Assembly: GCA_964624735.1 (NCBI GenBank)
Contig: CAZUXN010000003.1
Span: 1 to 42,696 of the forward strand
Direction of reading: 5' to 3'
Length of the DNA stretch: 42,696 bases
Source of the DNA: Candidatus Woesearchaeota archaeon
GTDB lineage: Archaea; Nanobdellota; Nanobdellia; Pacearchaeales; GW2011-AR1
Shown here: in pieces, positions 9,480 through 38,199 of the stretch
How the letters are laid out: every line of letters begins with the position of its first letter
Position numbering within the stretch: position 1 is the stretch's first letter
Notes under the pieces: generated by a model
The model's database searches: none
Told to the model about the DNA's origin: nothing
The model's input: only the letters and a program-made list of their open reading frames with translations
Position numbers and translations under genes: made by a program

Positions 9480-9980
9480 ATGAGGAAAGAAATAAGAACG
9501 GCATTGGATTTTTTAGGAGAGATGTATCTTCCGGGTTATTTAACAGTTTGTGGACAGGGAGATTATGTTGGCAGAGACAAAGCATTTTTTGTTTTTAATC
9601 CCGTGGAACCTCAGGTCACTTTACTTTCTGATAAGTATGTGACTCCGAGGGGAACTCATATTATGGTTTCTCAAGCTTCTTATTGTTTTTTTGAGTATAT
9701 AGTTGGGCAAGAGATGTTAAATATTGAAGTTGATGGATTAAGAAATTTGGGATTTGATGGAAGACTTAAGTTAGTTGAATTTAATCAGAAATTTCGTAAA
9801 GAGATTCCTATTTCTCGGGGGTTGCAGGGAAGATTTGATTTAAAGAGATTGAGGGTTGGGACTATGCCTGTGGTTAAAATGGATTTTGATTTTGGAGGAA
9901 GAGCAATTACTGGGAGTCTTACTGCTGTGATTGTTTCGCATCCTGTTCCTCAAACAAATGTAGATATAATGAGGCGTTAA
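9480..9980 (+). CDS. hypothetical protein (possibly hot-dog fold; weak)
   Basis: The ORF is open from GTG 9465. ATG 9480 is preceded by GGAG. There is no secure family match, and the 3' end overlaps the SMC stop by 4 nt. Confidence 0.5.
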   Translation: MRKEIRTALDFLGEMYLPGYLTVCGQGDYVGRDKAFFVFNPVEPQVTLLSDKYVTPRGTHIMVSQASYCFFEYIVGQEMLNIEVDGLRNLGFDGRLKLVEFNQKFRKEIPISRGLQGRFDLKRLRVGTMPVVKMDFDFGGRAITGSLTAVIVSHPVPQTNVDIMRR

Positions 9981-12841
9981 ATTTTTAGGCTGATTATTTT
10001 AGAGATGTTTTCTTGCATGCTTACTCCATATAAATTTGAGGCTTCGGAGATTAGGGTGTCGTTGTGGGTGATGATTATGTATTGGCCGGATGTCATGTAT
10101 TTTTTGATGAGGGCGGCGAGGAGTTCGGAGTTGTGTTTGTCTAGGGCGGCGTCAATTTCGTCGAGGACGTAGAAGCAATAAGGTCTGTATTCTTGGATTG
10201 CGAAGATTAGGGAGAGGGCTACGAGTGTTTTTTCGCCGCCGGAGAGGGATGTGATGTCGAAGTATCGGCCTCGTGAAACTTTTATTAGGATGTTGAGACC
10301 GCCGTCGAATGGGTCTTTTTTGTTTTCGAGTTCGAGGAAGACGGAGCCTTTTCTTGATAGTTGTGAGAAGTTTCTTGTGAAATATTCGTTGATGGCGGTG
10401 AGTGTTATTATGAATGATTTCTTTTTCTTTTTGTCTATTTCGGTTATGATTTTTTGGATTTGTTCTTGTTCGTTTTGGATTGTTTCAACTTTTTCTTGGA
10501 TTAGTTTGACTTGTTCTCCGACAGTGTCGAAGACTTCGAGGGCGCGCATGTTTACGTTGCCTAATCTTGAGATGTTGAATTGTGCTTTTTGGAGTCGTTC
10601 TTTTAGTTGGTCGGTTGGGATTGGGAGTAATTCTATTTGTCCGAATTCTAAGAGCTCTGATTTTATTGAATCTGTTTGGGCAATGAATTGTGCTTTTTGG
10701 ATTTTGTTGTGGTTAATTTTGTCTTCGAAGTTTTTGATTGTGTGTTGTGCTCCGATGATGTCGGTTTCGATTGTTTTTTGTTTATCTTGAACTTCGTTTC
10801 TTTCGTCAAAGAATTTTTGGGCTTTTTCATATAGTGCTTGTTCTTCTATTTCTTTTTTTAGTGCTTGCTTTTCTTTATCTTGCATTGCTACTTTTATTTT
10901 TCTTAGTTCAATTTCAGATTCTTCTACGTCTCTTTCAATTGATTTGAAGTCGACGGATAGTCGGTTTATTTCTTTTCGTTTGACTGTTATTTCGGTGTCA
11001 ACGTCCATGTCTGCGAATGAGAGTTCTTGGAGGGTTAATCTTGTTTCGTCGTAGGTTTCTTCGATGTTTTTTAGTTTTTCATATTCTGATTTTATTAAAT
11101 GAAGTTTTTCGTTTGTCGATGTTAGTTCTTTTTTTGTTTCTTCTTGGTTCTCGGTGATTCGTTTTATTTGTTCTTTCTTTTCTTCGGAGTTGTTTAGTTT
11201 TATCTGGTCGATGTCTAGTTCGTTTAGTTTTACTCTTAGTGTTGATAGTTTTTCTTTGAGATGGTTTGTTTTTGCGTTGTCTTCGAGTCTTGTTTTAGAG
11301 TTTTCTTCTATTTCTTTTTTTGCTGAATCAATTCTTGAGTTTGCCGTCGTAGAGATGTTGTGCTTGTGGTCTTCTTGGACGTTTTGTTTACAGATTGGAC
11401 AGAATTTTAATTGGATGATGTCGTCTTTTAATTTCTCTTCTCTTTCTATATTCATTTCTAGAATAGCGTTTCTTTTTTCTTTTTCTAAGATTTCTTTTTC
11501 TAATTTTGATATTTGTTCAGTTGTTGTTTCGATTTTGTTTTGGGTTTCTGTTTTTAGTTTTTCGTTTTCTTCGATTGACTTTGAGTATTTTATTTCGTGG
11601 AAGAGTGAGGTGATTGTTTGTTCGATGAGTTGGACTTCTTTTGATGATTCGATTAGGAATTTTTCTTTTTGGGATTTTTGGTTTTCTATTGTTGCGAGGT
11701 CGGATTTTAAGATGTAGAATTTTCTTCTTTGTTGCTCAAGTTTGTCGAATTTTTCTTGGAGGATTTTGTGTTGTTCTTGTTGTTCTTTTATTTTTGGGGA
11801 AGGGGTTTGGATTTTTGATATTTCAAGATTTAGGTTTTCGGTTTTGTTTTTTATGTTTCGGATTTTTTCTTTTCCTTGTATTATGTGGTTGTTGAAGTTT
11901 TCGCGTCGGACTTCTAATCCTGCGAGGTCGGCTTTGAGGTCAGATATTTCTCGGTGGAGGACTTCTTGTTCGTTGCTTGTTGATGATTGGATTTGCTTGT
12001 TGATGATTAGGATTTTGTCTTGGAGCTTGTCAACTTGAATGTTTTTTTCGTGGATTATTTTTTTTAGCTTTTCTATTTCCAAATCGTAGTTAGCTATTGT
12101 TTGGTTGATTATGGAGATTTCTTTTTCTTTTTCTTTTTCTTTTTTGGAGAGGAGTGTTGCTTTGCATCTTTTGATTGTTGTTTCGAGTTTTTGGTGAGAG
12201 AGGGCTTCTTGTCTTTCTTTGTCGAGGTTTTTTAGGTAGGATGTTCTTTCTTTTAGGACGGCTGAGACTTCTTTTAGTTTTTCTTCGGTTTTTTCGAGTT
12301 CTCTCAGTGACTTGTGTTTTCGGGTTTCGTAGATTGAGATGCCGGCGACTTCTTCGATTATTTTTCGTCGGTCTTCTGGAGTTGCTTTGACGAGGGATTG
12401 GATTTCGCCTTGGAGGACTATGTTGAATCCGTTTGGGTCGACGCCTGCTTGTGCCATTAGTTCTAAGATTTCTTGTCGGGTTTTTGTTTCTCTGTTTATT
12501 TTGTAGATTGATTGTCCGGTTTTTCGTACTGTTCTTTTGATTGTGATTTCTTTTGAGTCGATGCCGAATGTTTTGTCTGAGTTATCGAAGACGAGTTCTA
12601 CGGATGCTTCGGCTGAGCCTTTGTATATTTTGTTTCCTGAGAATAGTAGGTTTGCGGCTTTTGTGGCCCTTATGCTTTTTATTGAAAGTCTTCCGAGAAC
12701 GAAGCAGAGGGCGTCGGTGATGTTTGATTTTCCGGAGCCGTTTGGTCCGACGATTACGTTCATTGCGTTTTCGAAGGGAATTTCAGTTTTTCGTGCGAAG
12801 GATTTGAATCCGTGCATCACCATTTTTTTTATGTAGGTCAT
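9977..12841 (-). CDS. smc: SMC-family chromosome-organising ATPase with a central CxxC zinc-hook-like motif and no hinge
   Basis: Walker A GPNGSGKSN, FNIVLQGEI, signature LSGGEKTLVALSLIFAIQ, Walker B FYVLDEIDAALD, and about 700 aa of K/E-rich coiled coil. CPIC lies at aa 481-484 of 954. Confidence 0.9.
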   Translation of the reverse strand: MTYIKKMVMHGFKSFARKTEIPFENAMNVIVGPNGSGKSNITDALCFVLGRLSIKSIRATKAANLLFSGNKIYKGSAEASVELVFDNSDKTFGIDSKEITIKRTVRKTGQSIYKINRETKTRQEILELMAQAGVDPNGFNIVLQGEIQSLVKATPEDRRKIIEEVAGISIYETRKHKSLRELEKTEEKLKEVSAVLKERTSYLKNLDKERQEALSHQKLETTIKRCKATLLSKKEKEKEKEISIINQTIANYDLEIEKLKKIIHEKNIQVDKLQDKILIINKQIQSSTSNEQEVLHREISDLKADLAGLEVRRENFNNHIIQGKEKIRNIKNKTENLNLEISKIQTPSPKIKEQQEQHKILQEKFDKLEQQRRKFYILKSDLATIENQKSQKEKFLIESSKEVQLIEQTITSLFHEIKYSKSIEENEKLKTETQNKIETTTEQISKLEKEILEKEKRNAILEMNIEREEKLKDDIIQLKFCPICKQNVQEDHKHNISTTANSRIDSAKKEIEENSKTRLEDNAKTNHLKEKLSTLRVKLNELDIDQIKLNNSEEKKEQIKRITENQEETKKELTSTNEKLHLIKSEYEKLKNIEETYDETRLTLQELSFADMDVDTEITVKRKEINRLSVDFKSIERDVEESEIELRKIKVAMQDKEKQALKKEIEEQALYEKAQKFFDERNEVQDKQKTIETDIIGAQHTIKNFEDKINHNKIQKAQFIAQTDSIKSELLEFGQIELLPIPTDQLKERLQKAQFNISRLGNVNMRALEVFDTVGEQVKLIQEKVETIQNEQEQIQKIITEIDKKKKKSFIITLTAINEYFTRNFSQLSRKGSVFLELENKKDPFDGGLNILIKVSRGRYFDITSLSGGEKTLVALSLIFAIQEYRPYCFYVLDEIDAALDKHNSELLAALIKKYMTSGQYIIITHNDTLISEASNLYGVSMQENISKIISLKI

Positions 12842-12942: not shown

Positions 12943-13335
12943 ATGAAAATTGTTGTTGGTGCCGCGATTATTAAGAAGGGCAAGCTTTTGCTTGGGAGAA
13001 AGGGGAATTATTGGATATTTCCCGGCGGGAAGATGGCAGATGTTGATGAGGGAGATGATATAAAATGTCTTTGCAGAGAAGTTGAGGAGGAATTCTCTGG
13101 TACAAAATTGAGGGATGTTATTTATTATAATACATTTGTCAGACAAGCGATTCGTGGCTGGAGCGAAGTGGAAGAAAGAGTTTATCTTGCTAATATTGAT
13201 GGCAAGTTGTGTGGGGTCCGGGAAGGTGATTCTATCTTGGAAGCCAGATGGATTGATGATTTTTCCACTTATAATTTTTCTGAAATTACTTCGATGATTA
13301 TTGATTCGTTGAAAAAGGATGGGTATTTAAAATAA
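12943..13335 (+). CDS. Nudix hydrolase
   Basis: Nudix box GGKMADVDEGDDIKCLCREVEEEFSG (GX5EX7REVXEEXG). Confidence 0.85.
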   Translation: MKIVVGAAIIKKGKLLLGRKGNYWIFPGGKMADVDEGDDIKCLCREVEEEFSGTKLRDVIYYNTFVRQAIRGWSEVEERVYLANIDGKLCGVREGDSILEARWIDDFSTYNFSEITSMIIDSLKKDGYLK

Positions 13336-13980
13336 TTTTTGTTGCTTCTCTTCTCTGAGCTTCTTGATAGTATTCCACGAAAATCTAATCAAGTTTTTGT
13401 ATTTTGGGTTGTTGAAGTTTTCTTTGACGAATTTTATTGTTTTGGGGTCGGCGGGGTAGCCGGAGCCGAAGTCGGTTTTGAGTTGGAGTTTTAGTTTGTG
13501 GATTTCGTCTTCTCGTTTTTCTTTGGCCAGGATTGAGGCAGCGGAGACTACTGGGTGATTTAGGTCGGCTTTGTGTTCGGCTGAGATGGTTATTAGTTTT
13601 TGGTCATTGGTTATTAATTTTTGGACGTCGGTTGTCCAGGATTTGATGTTTACCGAGGGGCAGTCGATTATTACTTTGATTTTTTCGTTTAAGTTTTTCG
13701 TCAGGTGGTTGATTATTTTTGCGGCTTTTTCTGCTTCTAATAGATTTAGGTTTTTGTGTGCGTCGATTTCTTGTGGGGTTGAGAGTTCGATGTGGTGTTG
13801 AAATTGGTTTGATATTTTTTGAGCTATTTCTTTTCTTATGTTTGGGGTTAGGAGCTTGGAGTCTTTTGCTCCCCATTTTTTTATTATTTGTTCGTCTGAT
13901 TTTTTAATTAGGATGCCGGCGAGAATCATTGGGCCGAGAACGGGGCCGCGTCCGGCGTCATCTATTCCGAGGAGTTTCAT
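13327..13980 (-). CDS. rnhB: ribonuclease HII
   Basis: MKLLGIDDAGRGPVLGPM, GAKDSKLL and VSAASILAK are RNase HII catalytic blocks. Length 217 aa. Confidence 0.9.
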   Translation of the reverse strand: MKLLGIDDAGRGPVLGPMILAGILIKKSDEQIIKKWGAKDSKLLTPNIRKEIAQKISNQFQHHIELSTPQEIDAHKNLNLLEAEKAAKIINHLTKNLNEKIKVIIDCPSVNIKSWTTDVQKLITNDQKLITISAEHKADLNHPVVSAASILAKEKREDEIHKLKLQLKTDFGSGYPADPKTIKFVKENFNNPKYKNLIRFSWNTIKKLREEKQQKLF

Positions 13981-26846: not shown

Positions 26847-27245
26847 ATGCCATTTTGTGGATTTAATGAAGACATGCTTGAGGGCATGAAGTTGTTCTAT
26901 AGAGGCTTGGTTGAACATGGGATTATTGAACGCTCGAAAAAGAAAAATCAAATGGTTGGAGAAACAATAAATAAGGAAATAGAAGATATGGAAAGATTTC
27001 GGAAGGAACTTCCGGTGATTGAAGATTCGGAAGTAAGAGAATTGATTAGAACTTTAACTGAGTATGCTTGTGCGTTTTACAAATTGATTCAGAGAGAGGG
27101 AGTTGAGAATTATGAAAAACTTATTGAGAAAATAAATAATCTTTACTTTGAAATGGATGATAAGTTTTATTCTGAGTTAGATGGGAAACCGGATGATATG
27201 AAGCAATTGGCTATTTATTTAAATAAAATTTCGAAGGAGATTTAG
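26847..27245 (+). CDS. unknown-function protein, MPxCGFNE family, copy 1
   Basis: 132 aa. Shares MPxCGFNExMxEG, GLxEHG, GETI, GVENYE, MDxKxYxELxG and DDM with the next gene. Confidence 0.7.
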   Translation: MPFCGFNEDMLEGMKLFYRGLVEHGIIERSKKKNQMVGETINKEIEDMERFRKELPVIEDSEVRELIRTLTEYACAFYKLIQREGVENYEKLIEKINNLYFEMDDKFYSELDGKPDDMKQLAIYLNKISKEI

Positions 27246-27246
27246 G

Positions 27247-27639
27247 ATGCCAGTTTGTGGATTTAATGAGAAGATGATTGAAGGTTTATATGGTTTTAGT
27301 GCGGGACTTATTGAGCATGGGCTTAAGTTTAGGGGTGAGAAGAATGGGGAGACTATTGAGCAGGGGATTAAGCGGGAATTGTCTGATATGGCTCGTCTTT
27401 TAGCTGAGGTTCATAAGATTAATGATAGTGCTAAGCGGCTTTTGACGGAAGGGATTGTGAAGTATGCTATGGGGTTTTATATGGTTATGAGAAAGAAAGG
27501 GGTTGAGAATTATGAGAGTGATGTTTCTAAGTTAATGAATTATTTTGAGGCGATGGATGCTAAATATTATGGTGAGCTTGAGGGAAGGGCTGATGATATG
27601 GGTGAGTTGGTTAAATTTTTGGATGGGGTTAAGATTTAG
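27247..27639 (+). CDS. unknown-function protein, MPxCGFNE family, copy 2
   Basis: 130 aa. Starts 1 nt after the copy 1 stop and is a clear paralogue. Confidence 0.7.
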   Translation: MPVCGFNEKMIEGLYGFSAGLIEHGLKFRGEKNGETIEQGIKRELSDMARLLAEVHKINDSAKRLLTEGIVKYAMGFYMVMRKKGVENYESDVSKLMNYFEAMDAKYYGELEGRADDMGELVKFLDGVKI

Positions 27640-34912: not shown

Positions 34913-34933
34913 GGTTTTGTTAGTTTGTTTTTT

Positions 34934-35189
34934 GTAGGCAGGTCGGCGAGTTAGCCCCTCGCTATTCGCAAACGGGCTTTATGGCGGACTGCAAGGCAAG
35001 GCGTGAGATGAAGCTTTCGATGTTGTCGGTTTGACGTTGAGGTTTTGTCCTTTTTGATCTTGCCTTGATGAAGTGGGTCAGGTCGGGAACGAAGCAGCCC
35101 TAAGTTAAGGTTTGGGTGCTTAAAGGGTCGCAGAGCTGAGAAGAATTGATAACCTCTCGGTTGTGGATTTGAGCAACTTGCTGGCCTAC
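34934..35189 (+). ncRNA. signal recognition particle (7S) RNA
   Basis: Helix-8 signature GGGTCAGGTCGGGAACGAAGCAGCCC at 35075-35100. The 5' GTAGGC pairs with the 3' GCCTAC (35184-35189). The ends are approximate. Confidence 0.75.
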
Positions 35190-35214
35190 TTGAAAATCGG
35201 AGATTTTCAAGTGG

Positions 35215-35281: not shown

Positions 35282-35878
35282 ATGGTGATGAGCAAGAGGG
35301 GGCAGTTTTTTTTGTTGGCAGCTGTTGTGATTTCGGTTGTTGTGATTAGCCTCGGGGTGACGACGAATAGGGCAGTTGTAAAAAAAGAGCCGGTGAATTT
35401 TTATGATTTTAGTTATGAGGTTGAGAGAGAGGCAGGGGAAGTTTTGGATTATGAAATTTATAGTGATATCGATGGTGGGAGTTTGGATGAGTTTGTGCAG
35501 TTATTGGCGACGGAAATTCGAGACAGAGACCCCGATGCGAATTTTATGTTTATTTATGGGGATAATACGGAGATGAATTTGAGGAATTATGGGGCGGCTG
35601 AAGCTTTTGCCGGGGGGACTCTGGTTCCTGGGGCGAGCGAGGGTGTTATTAGTACTATTTGTATTGGTGGGTATTGTCAGGATGTGAATGAAGTGATAAG
35701 TGATTTTGATGAGGGGGTTGGGTATATTCAGTTAGATGAATCAGACATGGCGGGGAGTGATGATATTGTGGTGACGGTTGAAGGGCATGATTTTTCGTTT
35801 CCAATTTCGAGGCATCGGCAAGTTATTTTTGTAATACAAAAGGGGGTGGGTGATGAAAGTTTCGTTTCTGTTGGGTAA
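35282..35878 (+). CDS. type IV pilin-like protein (class III signal peptide)
   Basis: MVMSKRGQ/FFLLAAVVISVVVISLGV: a basic stretch, then G-Q and a hydrophobic helix, which is a prepilin-peptidase-type N-terminus. Confidence 0.65.
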   Translation: MVMSKRGQFFLLAAVVISVVVISLGVTTNRAVVKKEPVNFYDFSYEVEREAGEVLDYEIYSDIDGGSLDEFVQLLATEIRDRDPDANFMFIYGDNTEMNLRNYGAAEAFAGGTLVPGASEGVISTICIGGYCQDVNEVISDFDEGVGYIQLDESDMAGSDDIVVTVEGHDFSFPISRHRQVIFVIQKGVGDESFVSVG

Positions 35879-36353
35879 GGACAAGAGCGCGTTGAGTAAT
35901 ATGGTGGGTTATGTTTTGTTGATTTCGATTACGGTTGGGTTGTCTATTTTGGTTTATAATTGGTTGAGATTTTATGTTGGCGAGGGAGATGTCGATAAAT
36001 GTTCTGAAGGGGTTAATATTATTATTAAGAGTTATGAGTGTTATTCGTCGAATGAGTTTGGGTCTGGTAGGTTGGCAGTTACTTTGAAAAATAAAGGAAG
36101 GTTTACAATTGACGGGTATATATTGAGGGTTCATGATAGACCGGGGGTTGATTTTGGGTTTTATGTTTTTGACGAGAATGGGACGACGGTTGTGCCAGGG
36201 GAAGAATATGAAAAAACTTATGAGTTTAGTGATTATAGTTTTGATGGATACAATTTGAGTACTGTGACATTTGTTGAAATTCAGCCGTTCATGAAAGATG
36301 GAGATAAAATAAGTTGCAAATCTTACGCGTCGCAGGATGTTTTGTGTTATTAG
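35853..36353 (+). CDS. archaeal pilin-like protein (divergent Pilin_N-type N-terminus)
   Basis: ..KSALSNMVGYVLLISITVGLSILVYNW.. resembles the archaeal pilin N-terminal helix. It overlaps the upstream gene by ~26 nt. The ORF track starts at GTG 35850. Confidence 0.5.
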   Translation: MKVSFLLGKDKSALSNMVGYVLLISITVGLSILVYNWLRFYVGEGDVDKCSEGVNIIIKSYECYSSNEFGSGRLAVTLKNKGRFTIDGYILRVHDRPGVDFGFYVFDENGTTVVPGEEYEKTYEFSDYSFDGYNLSTVTFVEIQPFMKDGDKISCKSYASQDVLCY

Positions 36354-36378
36354 TAATGGTAGATGTTTGTGGGGTATA

Positions 36379-36386
36379 TTTATAAA
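36379..36386 (+). promoter_or_regulatory. TATA box TTTATAAA
   Basis: Ends 21 nt before ATG 36407. Confidence 0.6.
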
Positions 36387-36406
36387 TTGTAAAGATATGT
36401 AATTGT

Positions 36407-36859
36407 ATGAAAAGGGTGGTTGGTGGCCGTGGGCTTTCGCCGGTGATAGCGAGCGTGTTGATGATTTTGTTGGTTTTGGTTTTGGCGGCTTTGATTTTTT
36501 TGTGGGCGCGTGGTTTTATTAGTGAGCAGATTGAAAAGTTTGGGAAGCCGATTGGAGAGTTGTGTGGGTCGGTTGATTTTGAAGTCCAGAGGATAGGTAG
36601 TGATTTGGAGGTTATTAACCGAGGTGATGTTGATATCCGTCATTTGGATATAAAAATGTTTAGGGGAGGGGATTCGGAAGTTGAGAAATTTAATTTTCAG
36701 ATTGATGCTGGGGAGTCTGTTAGAAAGAGTGCTGTTTTGACAATGAAGAATAATGAGTTGCCCGACGAGATAATTATTTATCCTGCTTTGGTTGGTAATG
36801 TGAAGGGAGGTAGTTCTAACAAGGTATTCACTTGTATGGATGCTGGAAGGACTTTGTAA
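36407..36859 (+). CDS. archaeal type IV pilin (Pilin_N / DUF1628-type)
   Basis: MKRVVGGRGLSPVIASVLMILLVLVLAALIFLW is the canonical RG-[LV]-SPVI pilin N-terminus. Confidence 0.75.
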   Translation: MKRVVGGRGLSPVIASVLMILLVLVLAALIFLWARGFISEQIEKFGKPIGELCGSVDFEVQRIGSDLEVINRGDVDIRHLDIKMFRGGDSEVEKFNFQIDAGESVRKSAVLTMKNNELPDEIIIYPALVGNVKGGSSNKVFTCMDAGRTL

Positions 36860-36870
36860 ATGGTGGTTAT

Positions 36871-36972
36871 GAAAGTAACTTTAGAAAAGTTCCAATCGCA
36901 AAATATTCAAAGAAATTTTGTGAAAGTAACTTTAGAAAAGTTCCAATCGCAAAATATTCAAAGAAATTTTGT
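36871..36972 (+). repeat. perfect 2x 51-bp tandem duplication upstream of the pilin gene at 36987
   Basis: GAAAGTAACTTTAGAAAAGTTCCAATCGCAAAATATTCAAAGAAATTTTGT occurs at 36871-36921 and 36922-36972, followed by a partial GAAAG. Each unit has the inverted repeats AACTTT-AGA-AAAGTT and CAAAAT-N10-ATTTTG. Confidence 0.95.
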
Positions 36973-36986
36973 GAAAGGGGGTCGAT

Positions 36987-37487
36987 ATGAATAAAAATAG
37001 AAAAGGGATTAGTCCAGTTGTGGCGACGGTGTTGATAATTTTGATAACTGTTGCGGCGGTTACAATTATTTGGGCGGCTGTAATTCCGATGGTTAGAGAT
37101 AAACTTGGTTCTAGTATGACTTGTTTGGATGCCGTGTCGCAGATTCAATTGTTAAATGGGGGGTATACTTGTAAAGCGAGTAATGACAATAACGTGTCTA
37201 TTCAGATTAAGCGTTTGTCGAAGCCATTTGATTTGGCAGATATTCAGGTTTTGATTTCTTCTGGCGGAGATACTACTACTTTTAGAATTATGGATGACGC
37301 GACAACACTTATCCCGATTGGTGCTAATATTCCTTTGCCTAGTGTTAACGAGGAGAAAGTTTATATTATAAATACTAGTTCGATTGTGGGGACGATTAAT
37401 ATGGTTCAGATTGCGTCCATCGTCGGCGTTGGTAGTTCTGAGGAAATTTGTGATGTTTCTGCTACTTTGGTTTTGCAGAATTGTTAA
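36987..37487 (+). CDS. archaeal type IV pilin (Pilin_N / DUF1628-type)
   Basis: MNKNRKGISPVVATVLIILITVAAVTIIWAAV. Confidence 0.75.
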   Translation: MNKNRKGISPVVATVLIILITVAAVTIIWAAVIPMVRDKLGSSMTCLDAVSQIQLLNGGYTCKASNDNNVSIQIKRLSKPFDLADIQVLISSGGDTTTFRIMDDATTLIPIGANIPLPSVNEEKVYIINTSSIVGTINMVQIASIVGVGSSEEICDVSATLVLQNC

Positions 37488-37528
37488 AATAAGCGATTTG
37501 CGTCGGGGTAGGATTTAGTTGAGGTAGT

Positions 37529-37536
37529 TTTATAAA
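37529..37536 (+). promoter_or_regulatory. TATA box TTTATAAA
   Basis: Ends 22 nt before ATG 37558. Confidence 0.6.
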
Positions 37537-37557
37537 GTTATAAGTTGTTTTTGTAGG

Positions 37558-38082
37558 ATGAGGCGATTGAATAGGGTTGGGCAGGTTTGGGTTGAGACTG
37601 TAATTTATACTTTGATAGGTTTGGCTGTTATTGGATTGGTTTTGGCGGCTGCCTTGCCGAAGATAAATGAGAAGAAGGACGAGATTATGATTGAGCAATC
37701 GATTGAGGCACTGGGGAATATTGATGATAAGATTTATGAGGTTCAGAGAGCGTCGGGAAATCGGAGAGTTGTTGATTTAGAAGTGAAGAAGGGGATGTTG
37801 ATTGTTGATATGGAAGCGAATACGATTTTTTGGGAACTTGATTCGAGTTTTGAATATAGTGAGAGCGGGATTTCTATTCCGATTGGAAGATTAAATGTGA
37901 CGACGACTCCAGGGAATCCGTGGAAGATTGAGTTGAAATTATCTTATGATATGGATTTAAAATTTGATGGGAGTAATTTTGGGACCAAGAGAATTGATAT
38001 TTCTCCTACGCCGTATAAGTTTATTATCGAGAACATGGGGAAAGAGAGCGGGAATATTGTTATTAATTTGAGGGAATCTTAA
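37558..38082 (+). CDS. type IV pilin-like protein (class III signal peptide, Glu at +5)
   Basis: MRRLNRVG/QVWVETVIYTLIGLAVIGLVLAAAL. The G-Q..E5 arrangement resembles bacterial T4P and archaeal class III signals. Confidence 0.65.
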   Translation: MRRLNRVGQVWVETVIYTLIGLAVIGLVLAAALPKINEKKDEIMIEQSIEALGNIDDKIYEVQRASGNRRVVDLEVKKGMLIVDMEANTIFWELDSSFEYSESGISIPIGRLNVTTTPGNPWKIELKLSYDMDLKFDGSNFGTKRIDISPTPYKFIIENMGKESGNIVINLRES

Positions 38083-38199
38083 CATTAATAAAGTAAACTT
38101 TCTTTTGTTTTTAATGATATCTAAAATGTCTGAGGTGTTTGATTTTAGATTATGCAATGGTTAAGTCCTTGCTCTTCAAAAATTTAAAGATTTTTTCTG

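Follow-up and report, generated by a model that had tools for sequence, protein, structure and literature searches.

What joins the two protomers of an SMC protein that has no hinge? This question is raised by a gene on the minus strand of a 42,696-nucleotide stretch of DNA from Candidatus Woesearchaeota archaeon (contig CAZUXN010000003.1; the whole stretch is hereafter called the window), which encodes a 954-residue protein with SMC-type ATPase heads, long coiled-coil arms and, at its center, a C-P-I-C motif resembling the zinc hook of Rad50. Reviews divide these families by their apex, SMC proteins having a hinge and Rad50 proteins a zinc hook (PMC10586767). In this study, we analyzed the heads, apex, arms, gene neighborhood and relatives of the protein, and our results suggested that it is very likely the SMC orthologue of a Pacearchaeota-type DPANN archaeon (class Nanoarchaeia), in which the hinge has been swapped for a Rad50-type zinc hook. 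Each of the two modules is familiar, whereas the literature searched does not describe their natural combination in the cell's SMC: no full-text article that we found reported a natural SMC bearing a zinc hook (subscription-only papers were outside the search).

A preliminary description, made from the sequence alone, had proposed SMC-type heads and a Rad50-like hook at the exact midpoint of this protein, and no hinge. Translation bore out the open reading frame and its C-P-I-C, and every head motif quoted there was found in the product. The word midpoint is fair, since 480 residues precede the hook and 470 follow it. It was also correct that the protein is about 200 residues shorter than canonical SMC, related hinge-type SMCs having 1130-1190 residues. 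There are five cysteines in all (46, 226, 481, 484 and 889). The layout of the gene is as follows, all features lying on the minus strand:

9977-12841, minus: hinge-less SMC gene with a central putative zinc hook, 954 residues (open reading frame translation, SMC_N, TIGR02169; stop codon 9977-9979)
12338-12841, minus: N-terminal half of the ABC ATPase head, residues 1-168 (motifs; phmmer against Smc head structures)
12722-12748, minus: Walker A GPNGSGKSN, residues 32-40 (motif position)
12401-12415, minus: Q-loop LQGEI, residues 143-147 (motif position)
11414-12337, minus: N-terminal coiled-coil arm, residues 169-476, with the head-proximal neck at 169-215 (AlphaFold2 helices, conservation)
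11375-11413, minus: hook-bearing apex loop of the coiled-coil hairpin, residues 477-489 (sequence, profile, AlphaFold2, Foldseek)
11390-11401, minus: C-P-I-C, residues 481-484 (minus strand 11401 to 11390, TGT CCA ATC TGT)
11360-11410, minus: extended hook motif LKFCPICKQNVQEDHKH, the sequence context of C-P-I-C
10472-11374, minus: C-terminal coiled-coil arm, residues 490-790 (AlphaFold2 helices; C-side length)
9980-10471, minus: C-terminal half of the ATPase head, residues 791-954 (motifs; phmmer against 3KTA_B and 1XEW_Y)
10226-10246, minus: signature LSGGEKT, residues 866-872 (motif position)
10151-10174, minus: Walker B FYVLDEID, residues 890-897 (motif position)
C-terminal head half, minus: D-loop DAALD, residues 897-901 (motif position)
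10058-10072, minus: H-loop ITHND, residues 924-928 (motif position)

First, the split head contains all of the ATPase motifs (Walker A, Q-loop, LSGGxK signature, Walker B DE, D-loop and H-loop), and similarity searches assigned it to SMC. Pfam SMC_N matched residues 3-945 (3e-55), and the NCBIfam models SMC_prok_A (TIGR02169) and SMC_prok_B (TIGR02168) gave 509.6 and 504 bits, respectively. The SMC_prok_A score is under the curated equivalog cut-off of 729.4 because the match falls into two stretches and skips the hinge part in the middle of the model. Five Rad50 models (NF002244, NF003034, NF002572, NF041034 and NF041035) gave 57-79 bits against cut-offs of 700-1087, and the ASRP model NF045487 gave 84.8 bits against a cut-off of 300. 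The PADLOC defense models mad3, LmuB and JetC (158, 68.5 and 28.6 bits) were all far under the SMC score. Among known structures, phmmer matched the Pyrococcus and Bacillus Smc heads 5XEI, 5XNS, 4I99 and 3ZGX at 1e-99 to 2e-73 and the C-terminal Smc head constructs 3KTA_B and 1XEW_Y at 1e-32, whereas the best Rad50 head reached 6e-13. Judged by these similarities, the heads are SMC heads, as the preliminary description had read them.

Second, no hinge was detected. The Pfam model SMC_hinge (PF06470) did not match the 954-residue protein even at E<=1. This negative result is meaningful because the same model finds the hinge in relatives: at 1e-31 to 1e-34 in four with a complete hinge (943-1140 residues), and at 1.4e-06 in P0200, whose hinge is partial. 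A hinge hidden Markov model (HMM) of our own, built from the complete-hinge relatives, was run on the window protein and its best 150 representatives of 50%-identity clusters. It was also negative for the window protein and every other hook-type sequence. Of the sequences sorted in this way, 104 had a hinge, 33 had a central CPxC, 14 had neither and none had both. Thus, a hinge detectable by HMM, which the preliminary description had named as evidence against itself, was absent in both searches.

Third, the central cysteines are conserved far beyond chance. Both C481 and C484 are invariant in all 120 of the best database homologues (66-88% identity, nearly all 946-954 residues long; consensus C-P-[IVT]-C-K-Q-x-V-x-x-x-H-K), and all 33 hook-type representatives of 50%-identity clusters keep the CxxC, even the most distant at 37% identity, at a fraction of 0.47-0.50 of the length. 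In a 50-sequence alignment, invariance at positions 420-540 is limited to E455, A459, C481 and C484. No other 15-residue segment of the arms is as conserved as the hook core (0.63, the arm mean being 0.45, among 24 diverse members), and across the middle third of the protein only C481 and C484 do not vary. With regard to distribution, the motif occurs in at least ~52 GTDB species-representative genomes labeled Pacearchaeota, Woesearchaeota, Nanoarchaeota or Nanoarchaeia, taken from the best 80 loci of a scan of the genome collection.

The similarity of this apex to Rad50 was supported by several comparisons. Rad50_zn_hook (PF04423) was the best Pfam match of a 72-residue apex fragment of the window protein (E 0.0056), and it matched 27 of 31 diverse apex fragments of the family, the best at 4e-8. 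When a profile of the 31 fragments was compared with all PDB sequences, the Pyrococcus furiosus Rad50 hook 1L8D came first (E 4e-6, 80 aligned residues), followed by 6ZFF (1e-5) and the human RAD50 hook 5GOX (0.036), in register. The CxxC is in register with that of 1L8D (CPlCkqkiteeh against CPVCGRELTDEH; in the full profile alignment, consensus iCPlCkqkiteehkk over KCPVCGRELTDEHRE), and the Rad50-like pattern x3-[VIL]-x2-[DE]-H follows the CPxC. An 84-residue apex modeled by AlphaFold2 with the family alignment was predicted to be a helix-loop-helix (predicted local distance difference test, pLDDT, 94.9), for which the two chains of 1L8D (B and A) ranked first and second among 350,542 PDB chains in Foldseek (TM 0.82, root-mean-square deviation 2.4 Å, probability 1.00). 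In both sequence and predicted structure, the apex loop and its flanking helices were therefore shown to resemble the Pyrococcus Rad50 hook, in agreement with the preliminary description.

The hook appears to be carried by near-full-length SMC arms. The AlphaFold2 model of the whole protein (mean pLDDT 72; arms 70-90, heads poor) contains a long antiparallel intramolecular coiled-coil arm of ~300 residues per strand, with long helices on the N side at 170-288, 291-340, 352-416 and 423-476 and on the C side at 490-588, 593-606, 618-732, 743-760 and 767-828. The hairpin apex at 477-489, between helices 423-476 and 490-588, carries the CPIC. Column conservation among the 24 diverse members was 0.74 and 0.75 for the N and C halves of the head, 0.74 for the neck and 0.45 for the arm, the neck (169-215) thus being conserved as strongly as the heads. 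Arm lengths are nearly fixed (n=172), with a value of 480 on the N side (interquartile range 477-480) and 470 on the C side (interquartile range 470-471). BLASTP against hinge-type SMCs gave sliding, overlapping coiled-coil alignments, so length bookkeeping was used instead, and by this rough measure the arms are ~20-35 residues per strand shorter than those of a Woesearchaeota SMC. The fixed lengths (480/470) fit the idea that arm geometry, not the type of joint, is what an SMC needs.

By analogy with Rad50, the ~170-residue hinge dimerization domain would have been replaced by a ~12-residue hook at the tip of these arms, where two protomers, each contributing two cysteines, would bind one tetrahedral Zn2+ and form a constitutive tail-to-tail homodimer. 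ATP-driven engagement and release of the SMC heads would then act on DNA as in the Smc-ScpA(B) condensin, the hook serving as a permanent joint only.

It is quite unlikely that the CPxC serves instead as a metal or redox site within one chain, or simply as a tight turn that caps the hairpin, dimerization then going only through heads or arms. The His residues that follow the motif in close relatives (C-x2-C-x7-H-x-H) make a C2H2-like site possible in principle, and the joint may be dispensable, given that ~800-residue orthologues of the same clade and ~924-residue forms of a second hook family, from Iainarchaeota, lack the apex cysteines. However, deeper members do not conserve the His residues (the first position has Y, E or A), and the Iainarchaeota family (CPVCENELTGERKD) lacks them. 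Pyrococcus Rad50 has the same His, yet its zinc is held by four cysteines, two per chain (bioRxiv 10.1101/2020.06.24.160820). Moreover, the similarity to the Rad50 hook extends beyond the CxxC over ~80 residues of flanking coiled coil, and a chain with two apex cysteines cannot by itself provide four Cys ligands for zinc. An intramolecular Cys2His2 site is unlikely on this sequence evidence, and a hook that joins two protomers is the preferred reading.

The locus and the head phylogeny were then considered for the place of the hook protein among SMCs. In the window, the smc gene is preceded by the following gene:

13327-13980, minus: RNase HII gene, upstream of smc on the same strand (Pfam RNase_HII, 3e-42)

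In 42 of 52 loci, the hook-type smc has an RNase HII gene (rnhB) upstream, separated from it by a median of 157 bp; in 39 of them the two genes share a strand. The linkage is also found in the divergent hook forms L002 and L003, in the hinge-type relative L004 and in L006, which encodes an 804-residue SMC with neither hook nor hinge; genes for AP endonuclease 2, a HAD hydrolase, an oxidoreductase, TatD and diphthine synthase are common to the L006 locus and the window. RNase HII is thus a conserved neighbor that marks the SMC locus of the lineage, and it is not proposed as a functional partner. The two head halves were used for neighbor-joining trees (340-346 columns, 200 bootstrap replicates, our own code), in which the hook-type sequences and four hook-less ~800-residue forms made up a Pacearchaeota clade (192/200 and 191/200). 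The nearest neighbors of this clade were hinge-type SMCs of Nanoarchaeia and Woesearchaeota, among which it was nested. The preliminary description had warned of heads that cluster with Rad50, an outcome that the head scores given above did not bear out. The hook-type smc occurs once per genome in the ~52 species representatives, and the hook-bearing assemblies had no hinge-type locus among the best 80 loci, the same search patterns having retrieved hinge-type SMCs of other taxa. Database labels of the hook SMCs were 'chromosome segregation protein SMC' or 'AAA family ATPase'. Gene order and phylogeny together indicate, as far as sequence comparison goes, that the gene represents the SMC orthologue and not an additional paralogue. 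In addition, one metagenome-assembled genome (MAG), CAZOAN01, contains two full-length hook-type smc copies on different contigs (L026:6290-9145 and L027:10001-12856) with identical hook segments, which could be assembly redundancy, a strain mixture or a true duplication.

It is very unlikely that the protein is an accessory SMC-like paralogue working beside a canonical SMC, either of the coalescin/ASRP type or a defense ATPase such as Lamassu LmuB or MADS mad3. Zinc hooks are indeed borne by ASRP/ClsN (PMC9389158) and many LmuB (PMC10586767), the mad3 and LmuB models do give scores, and the count of SMC genes covers the window and the flanks of relatives. Nevertheless, the PADLOC scores reflect generic head similarity at about one third of the SMC score, and the ASRP score is far from its cut-off beside 510 bits for SMC_prok_A. 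The gene also lies, once per genome, at the rnhB-linked housekeeping locus that in L004 is taken by the hinge-type SMC. Searches for partners covered the 42.7-kb window and the ±10-kb flanks of relatives, and no Mre11, Rad50 or second SMC was encoded in the window or within 10 kb of the hook-type smc loci. Nor was a nuclease or effector gene linked to the hook smc, whose neighbors are housekeeping genes conserved across ~50 species, and the missing hinge-type locus in hook assemblies (among the best 80 loci) argues weakly in the same direction. An ordinary archaeal Rad50 (the Mre11 partner in double-strand-break repair) misannotated as SMC, which would account for the apical CPxC with its x3-[VIL]-x2-[DE]-H pattern, the lack of a hinge and a length close to that of archaeal Rad50 (954 residues), is barely credible and effectively refuted by the head scores (57-79 bits against 504-510 bits; 6e-13 against 1e-99 in the PDB), and is further contradicted by the SMC-type DEIDAALD Walker B/D-loop and LSGGEKT signature and by heads nested inside hinge-type SMCs. 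No Mre11 (metallophosphatase) gene was found in the window or in the Pfam lists of the flanks of L001-L003 and L006.

Several observations weigh against the reading of the protein as the cell's SMC with a functional zinc hook. With regard to the hook, the Rad50_zn_hook match of the window apex is under the gathering score, the full-length protein had no Rad50_zn_hook match in the Pfam scan, and the Foldseek E-value for 1L8D is weak (0.067) because the fold is small. Zinc binding and dimerization are inferred by analogy, because Rad50 hook structures share a two-plus-two coordination of zinc and because both an engineered hook Smc and the reverse swap in Rad50 work. A covalent-like joint may not be strictly required in the Pacearchaeota lineage, given its ~800-residue hook-less orthologues. 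The head trees are neighbor-joining trees on only 340 columns. Finally, HMMs for ScpA and ScpB, built from seeds beside the hinge-type smc of L072, L082, L086, L085 and L070, found neither gene, the area covered being the window and ±10 kb around each of 52 hook-type smc loci, whereas scpA was directly downstream of smc in 5 of the ~13 hinge-type loci fetched. A protein search seeded with a Nanoarchaeia ScpA gave no Pacearchaeota label among its best 120 matches, and no match on a contig as long as one bearing a hook SMC; it also missed the contigs of hinge-type genomes known to bear ScpA and so carries no weight in either direction. Clustering of neighboring genes across the 52 hook loci revealed no conserved kleisin-sized gene of unknown function.

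A second family of hook SMCs was found in a different DPANN lineage. The SMC of an Iainarchaeum MAG (L071, 10001-12835) has 1014 residues after intein removal, with KTSCPVCENELTGERKD at its center, and no hinge was found in it. It scored 525 bits with SMC_prok_A, at most 116 bits with the Rad50 models and 3e-4 with Pfam Rad50_zn_hook. Its best 120 homologues (P0411-P0530) are labeled Diapherotrites, Iainarchaeum or Micrarchaeota and include archaeon GW2011_AR10 (1.24-Mb contig); 100 of them have a hook, the other 20 have no hook, and a hinge is present in none. The family motif is CP[VTI]C[DE]xx[LI], and the typical length is 985-1030 residues, with variants of 806 residues (short-arm hook forms) and ~924 residues (forms without the hook). 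In the neighbor-joining analysis, this Iainarchaeota/Diapherotrites family was monophyletic in 200 of 200 replicates and was joined to the Pacearchaeota clade in none of 200. The mean head distance was 1.16 between the two hook clades, compared with 0.71 between Pacearchaeota hook and Woesearchaeota hinge SMCs. Two independent replacements of a hinge by a hook would be the most economical account of these sequence comparisons, a neighbor-joining tree on short alignments not being decisive.

Loss of the hook appears to have followed in some members. Pacearchaeota orthologues of ~780-804 residues have neither hinge nor CxxC (L006:10001-12415, which is P0284, and P0142, P0143, P0144 and P0147). 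These ~800-residue forms have ~75 fewer residues per arm, are nested in the hook clade and, in L006, lie at the RNase HII-linked locus. Read most simply, the ancestor of the Pacearchaeota clade would have exchanged its hinge for the hook, and some members would later have lost the apex together with ~75 residues per arm. More broadly, and only as a tentative proposal that may well prove wrong, the zinc hook could have replaced the hinge at least twice independently in DPANN (in Pacearchaeota-type Nanoarchaeia and in Iainarchaeota/Diapherotrites), sublineages of both having then lost the hook; hinge-specific activities would be dispensable, and the SMC might perhaps act without a recognizable kleisin.

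Three further kinds of unusual SMC genes were observed in the course of these searches. First, SMC-like proteins of spirochaetes/Leptospirales (~917-991 residues; L068, L069, L074, L075, L078 and L083, 10001 to ~12770 in each) can be aligned with the window protein over the full length (24-28% identity) and have no central CxxC. Pfam SMC_hinge was not found in L068, the one spirochaete protein checked, and these proteins may be another hinge-less bacterial SMC type. Second, mini SMCs of ~830 residues with a normal hinge and much shorter arms (L070, L080 and L085, 10001 to ~12480) came from one Aenigmatarchaeota MAG and two unclassified archaeal MAGs (L070 and L085), scpA being directly downstream in the latter two. 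Third, many hook SMC genes of both families encode 1476-1565 residues (P0112, P0126, P0130, L038, L044, L048, L071, P0411, P0420 and P0436), ~500 more than their relatives, with the extra residues before the hook. Where Pfam matches were listed for them, they were LAGLIDADG/intein families, and the intein of L071 breaks the Walker A P-loop directly after GSNASGK.

The hook SMC can be compared with several known systems. With prokaryotic Smc (Smc-ScpAB of Pyrococcus and B. subtilis) it has in common the heads with all motifs, the conserved neck, antiparallel arms of ~300 residues, heads that branch inside archaeal SMCs and an rnhB-linked locus as in a hinge-type relative; it differs in having a CPxC loop as apex instead of PF06470, a score under the equivalog cut-off, shorter arms and no linked scpA that we could find. 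With the Rad50/SbcC hook (PF04423; 1L8D, 6ZFF and 5GOX), in which zinc is coordinated by two cysteines from each monomer (bioRxiv 10.1101/2020.06.24.160820), it shares the apical CPxC and, after it, a hydrophobic residue and the acidic-His pattern, whereas its heads are not of the Rad50 type, its arms are of SMC length and no linked Mre11 was found. The ASRPs (ClsN, Sph1/Sph2; NF045487) are likewise archaeal coiled-coil ABC ATPases with a zinc hook instead of a hinge, and the hook of coalescin ClsN, named in the preliminary description, is documented (PMC9389158). However, ASRPs are short (~590 residues; model of 593 positions) and constitute a family of their own, whereas the 954-residue protein is an SMC by score, tree and gene order.

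A precedent with the same architecture is artificial. In B. subtilis Smc(Zh), the hinge was exchanged for the Pyrococcus furiosus Rad50 hook, and the engineered protein supports growth and, like the wild type, remains dependent on arm length (Burmann et al. 2017, PMC5344682). The reverse swap is functional in fission yeast Rad50 (PMC6969161). Smc(Zh) and the hook SMC both combine SMC heads and arms with a Rad50-type hook as the joint, and the arm-length need of the former fits the near-invariant lengths found here. In contrast to Smc(Zh), the hook SMC is a natural, ancient and species-rich family, the hook of which has diverged in the SMC context (CP[ILVT]C[KR]xx[IV][TS]xEH). Hinge-less SMC variants have also been mined from marine metagenomes, which, like the hook SMC, have SMC-type heads and arms without a hinge (Sussfeld et al. 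2025, PMC12153180); those are bacterial (Actinobacteria-like), explicitly lack CXXC and are closer to the ~800-residue hook-less Pacearchaeota and the spirochaete forms.

The prior evidence for a working hook SMC consisted of one engineered B. subtilis protein only. A natural family, in at least two archaeal lineages and at the usual SMC locus, offers comparative evidence that the joint is exchangeable when arm length stays constant. In models of DNA loading and loop extrusion, the hinge binds DNA or acts as a gate. If the repeated replacement of the hinge and subsequent loss of the hook were true, DNA binding by the hinge, an entry gate and hinge-head contact would be dispensable for the main SMC of a cell, and the conserved need would be a permanent joint with arms of fixed length. 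The family also raises the question of which partners such SMCs use, and its small natural members are material for structural and single-molecule work. At present, annotation hides this architectural class.

Other features of the window were also observed. Its base composition is strongly skewed (positions 1-42696: GC skew +0.41, AT skew -0.24), the GC skew being positive in every 2-kb window regardless of gene orientation. Third codon positions have a GC skew of +0.77 in genes on the plus strand and of -0.69 in those on the minus strand, and the proteins encoded on the plus and minus strands differ sharply in composition (Val 10.1% vs 3.9%, Lys 7.3% vs 12.6%). A skew of equal magnitude was present in the relative L001 (569-kb contig) and not in most other Pacearchaeota loci; a literature search on strand skew gave nothing relevant among the best matches. 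Long plus-strand open reading frames lie antisense to the SMC gene (10251-10790, 11154-11717, 11742-12038 and 12537-12836), with Phe/Ser/Leu-rich translations. Rather than genes, these are most likely a side effect of the skewed composition and of a Lys/Glu-rich coiled-coil coding sequence.

Two adjacent paralogous genes (26847-27245 and 27247-27639, plus strand) encode proteins of ~130 residues that both start with MPxCGFNE, for which no Pfam family was found. A type IV pilus-like cluster at 35282-42523 includes T2SSF-type genes, pilin-like genes and a T2SSE ATPase, and a '23S rRNA-intervening sequence protein' gene (four-helix bundle, PF05635, 2.9e-37) lies at 41296-41709 (plus strand) between two T2SSF-type membrane genes. 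Finally, a signal recognition particle (SRP) RNA is located at 34932-35191 (plus strand). A default scan recognized only its core at 35046-35132, labeled 'bacterial small SRP', and the archaeal model gave 84.8 bits (gathering score 96.5), the match lacking ~40 positions of the model; the RNA looks like a reduced archaeal SRP RNA.

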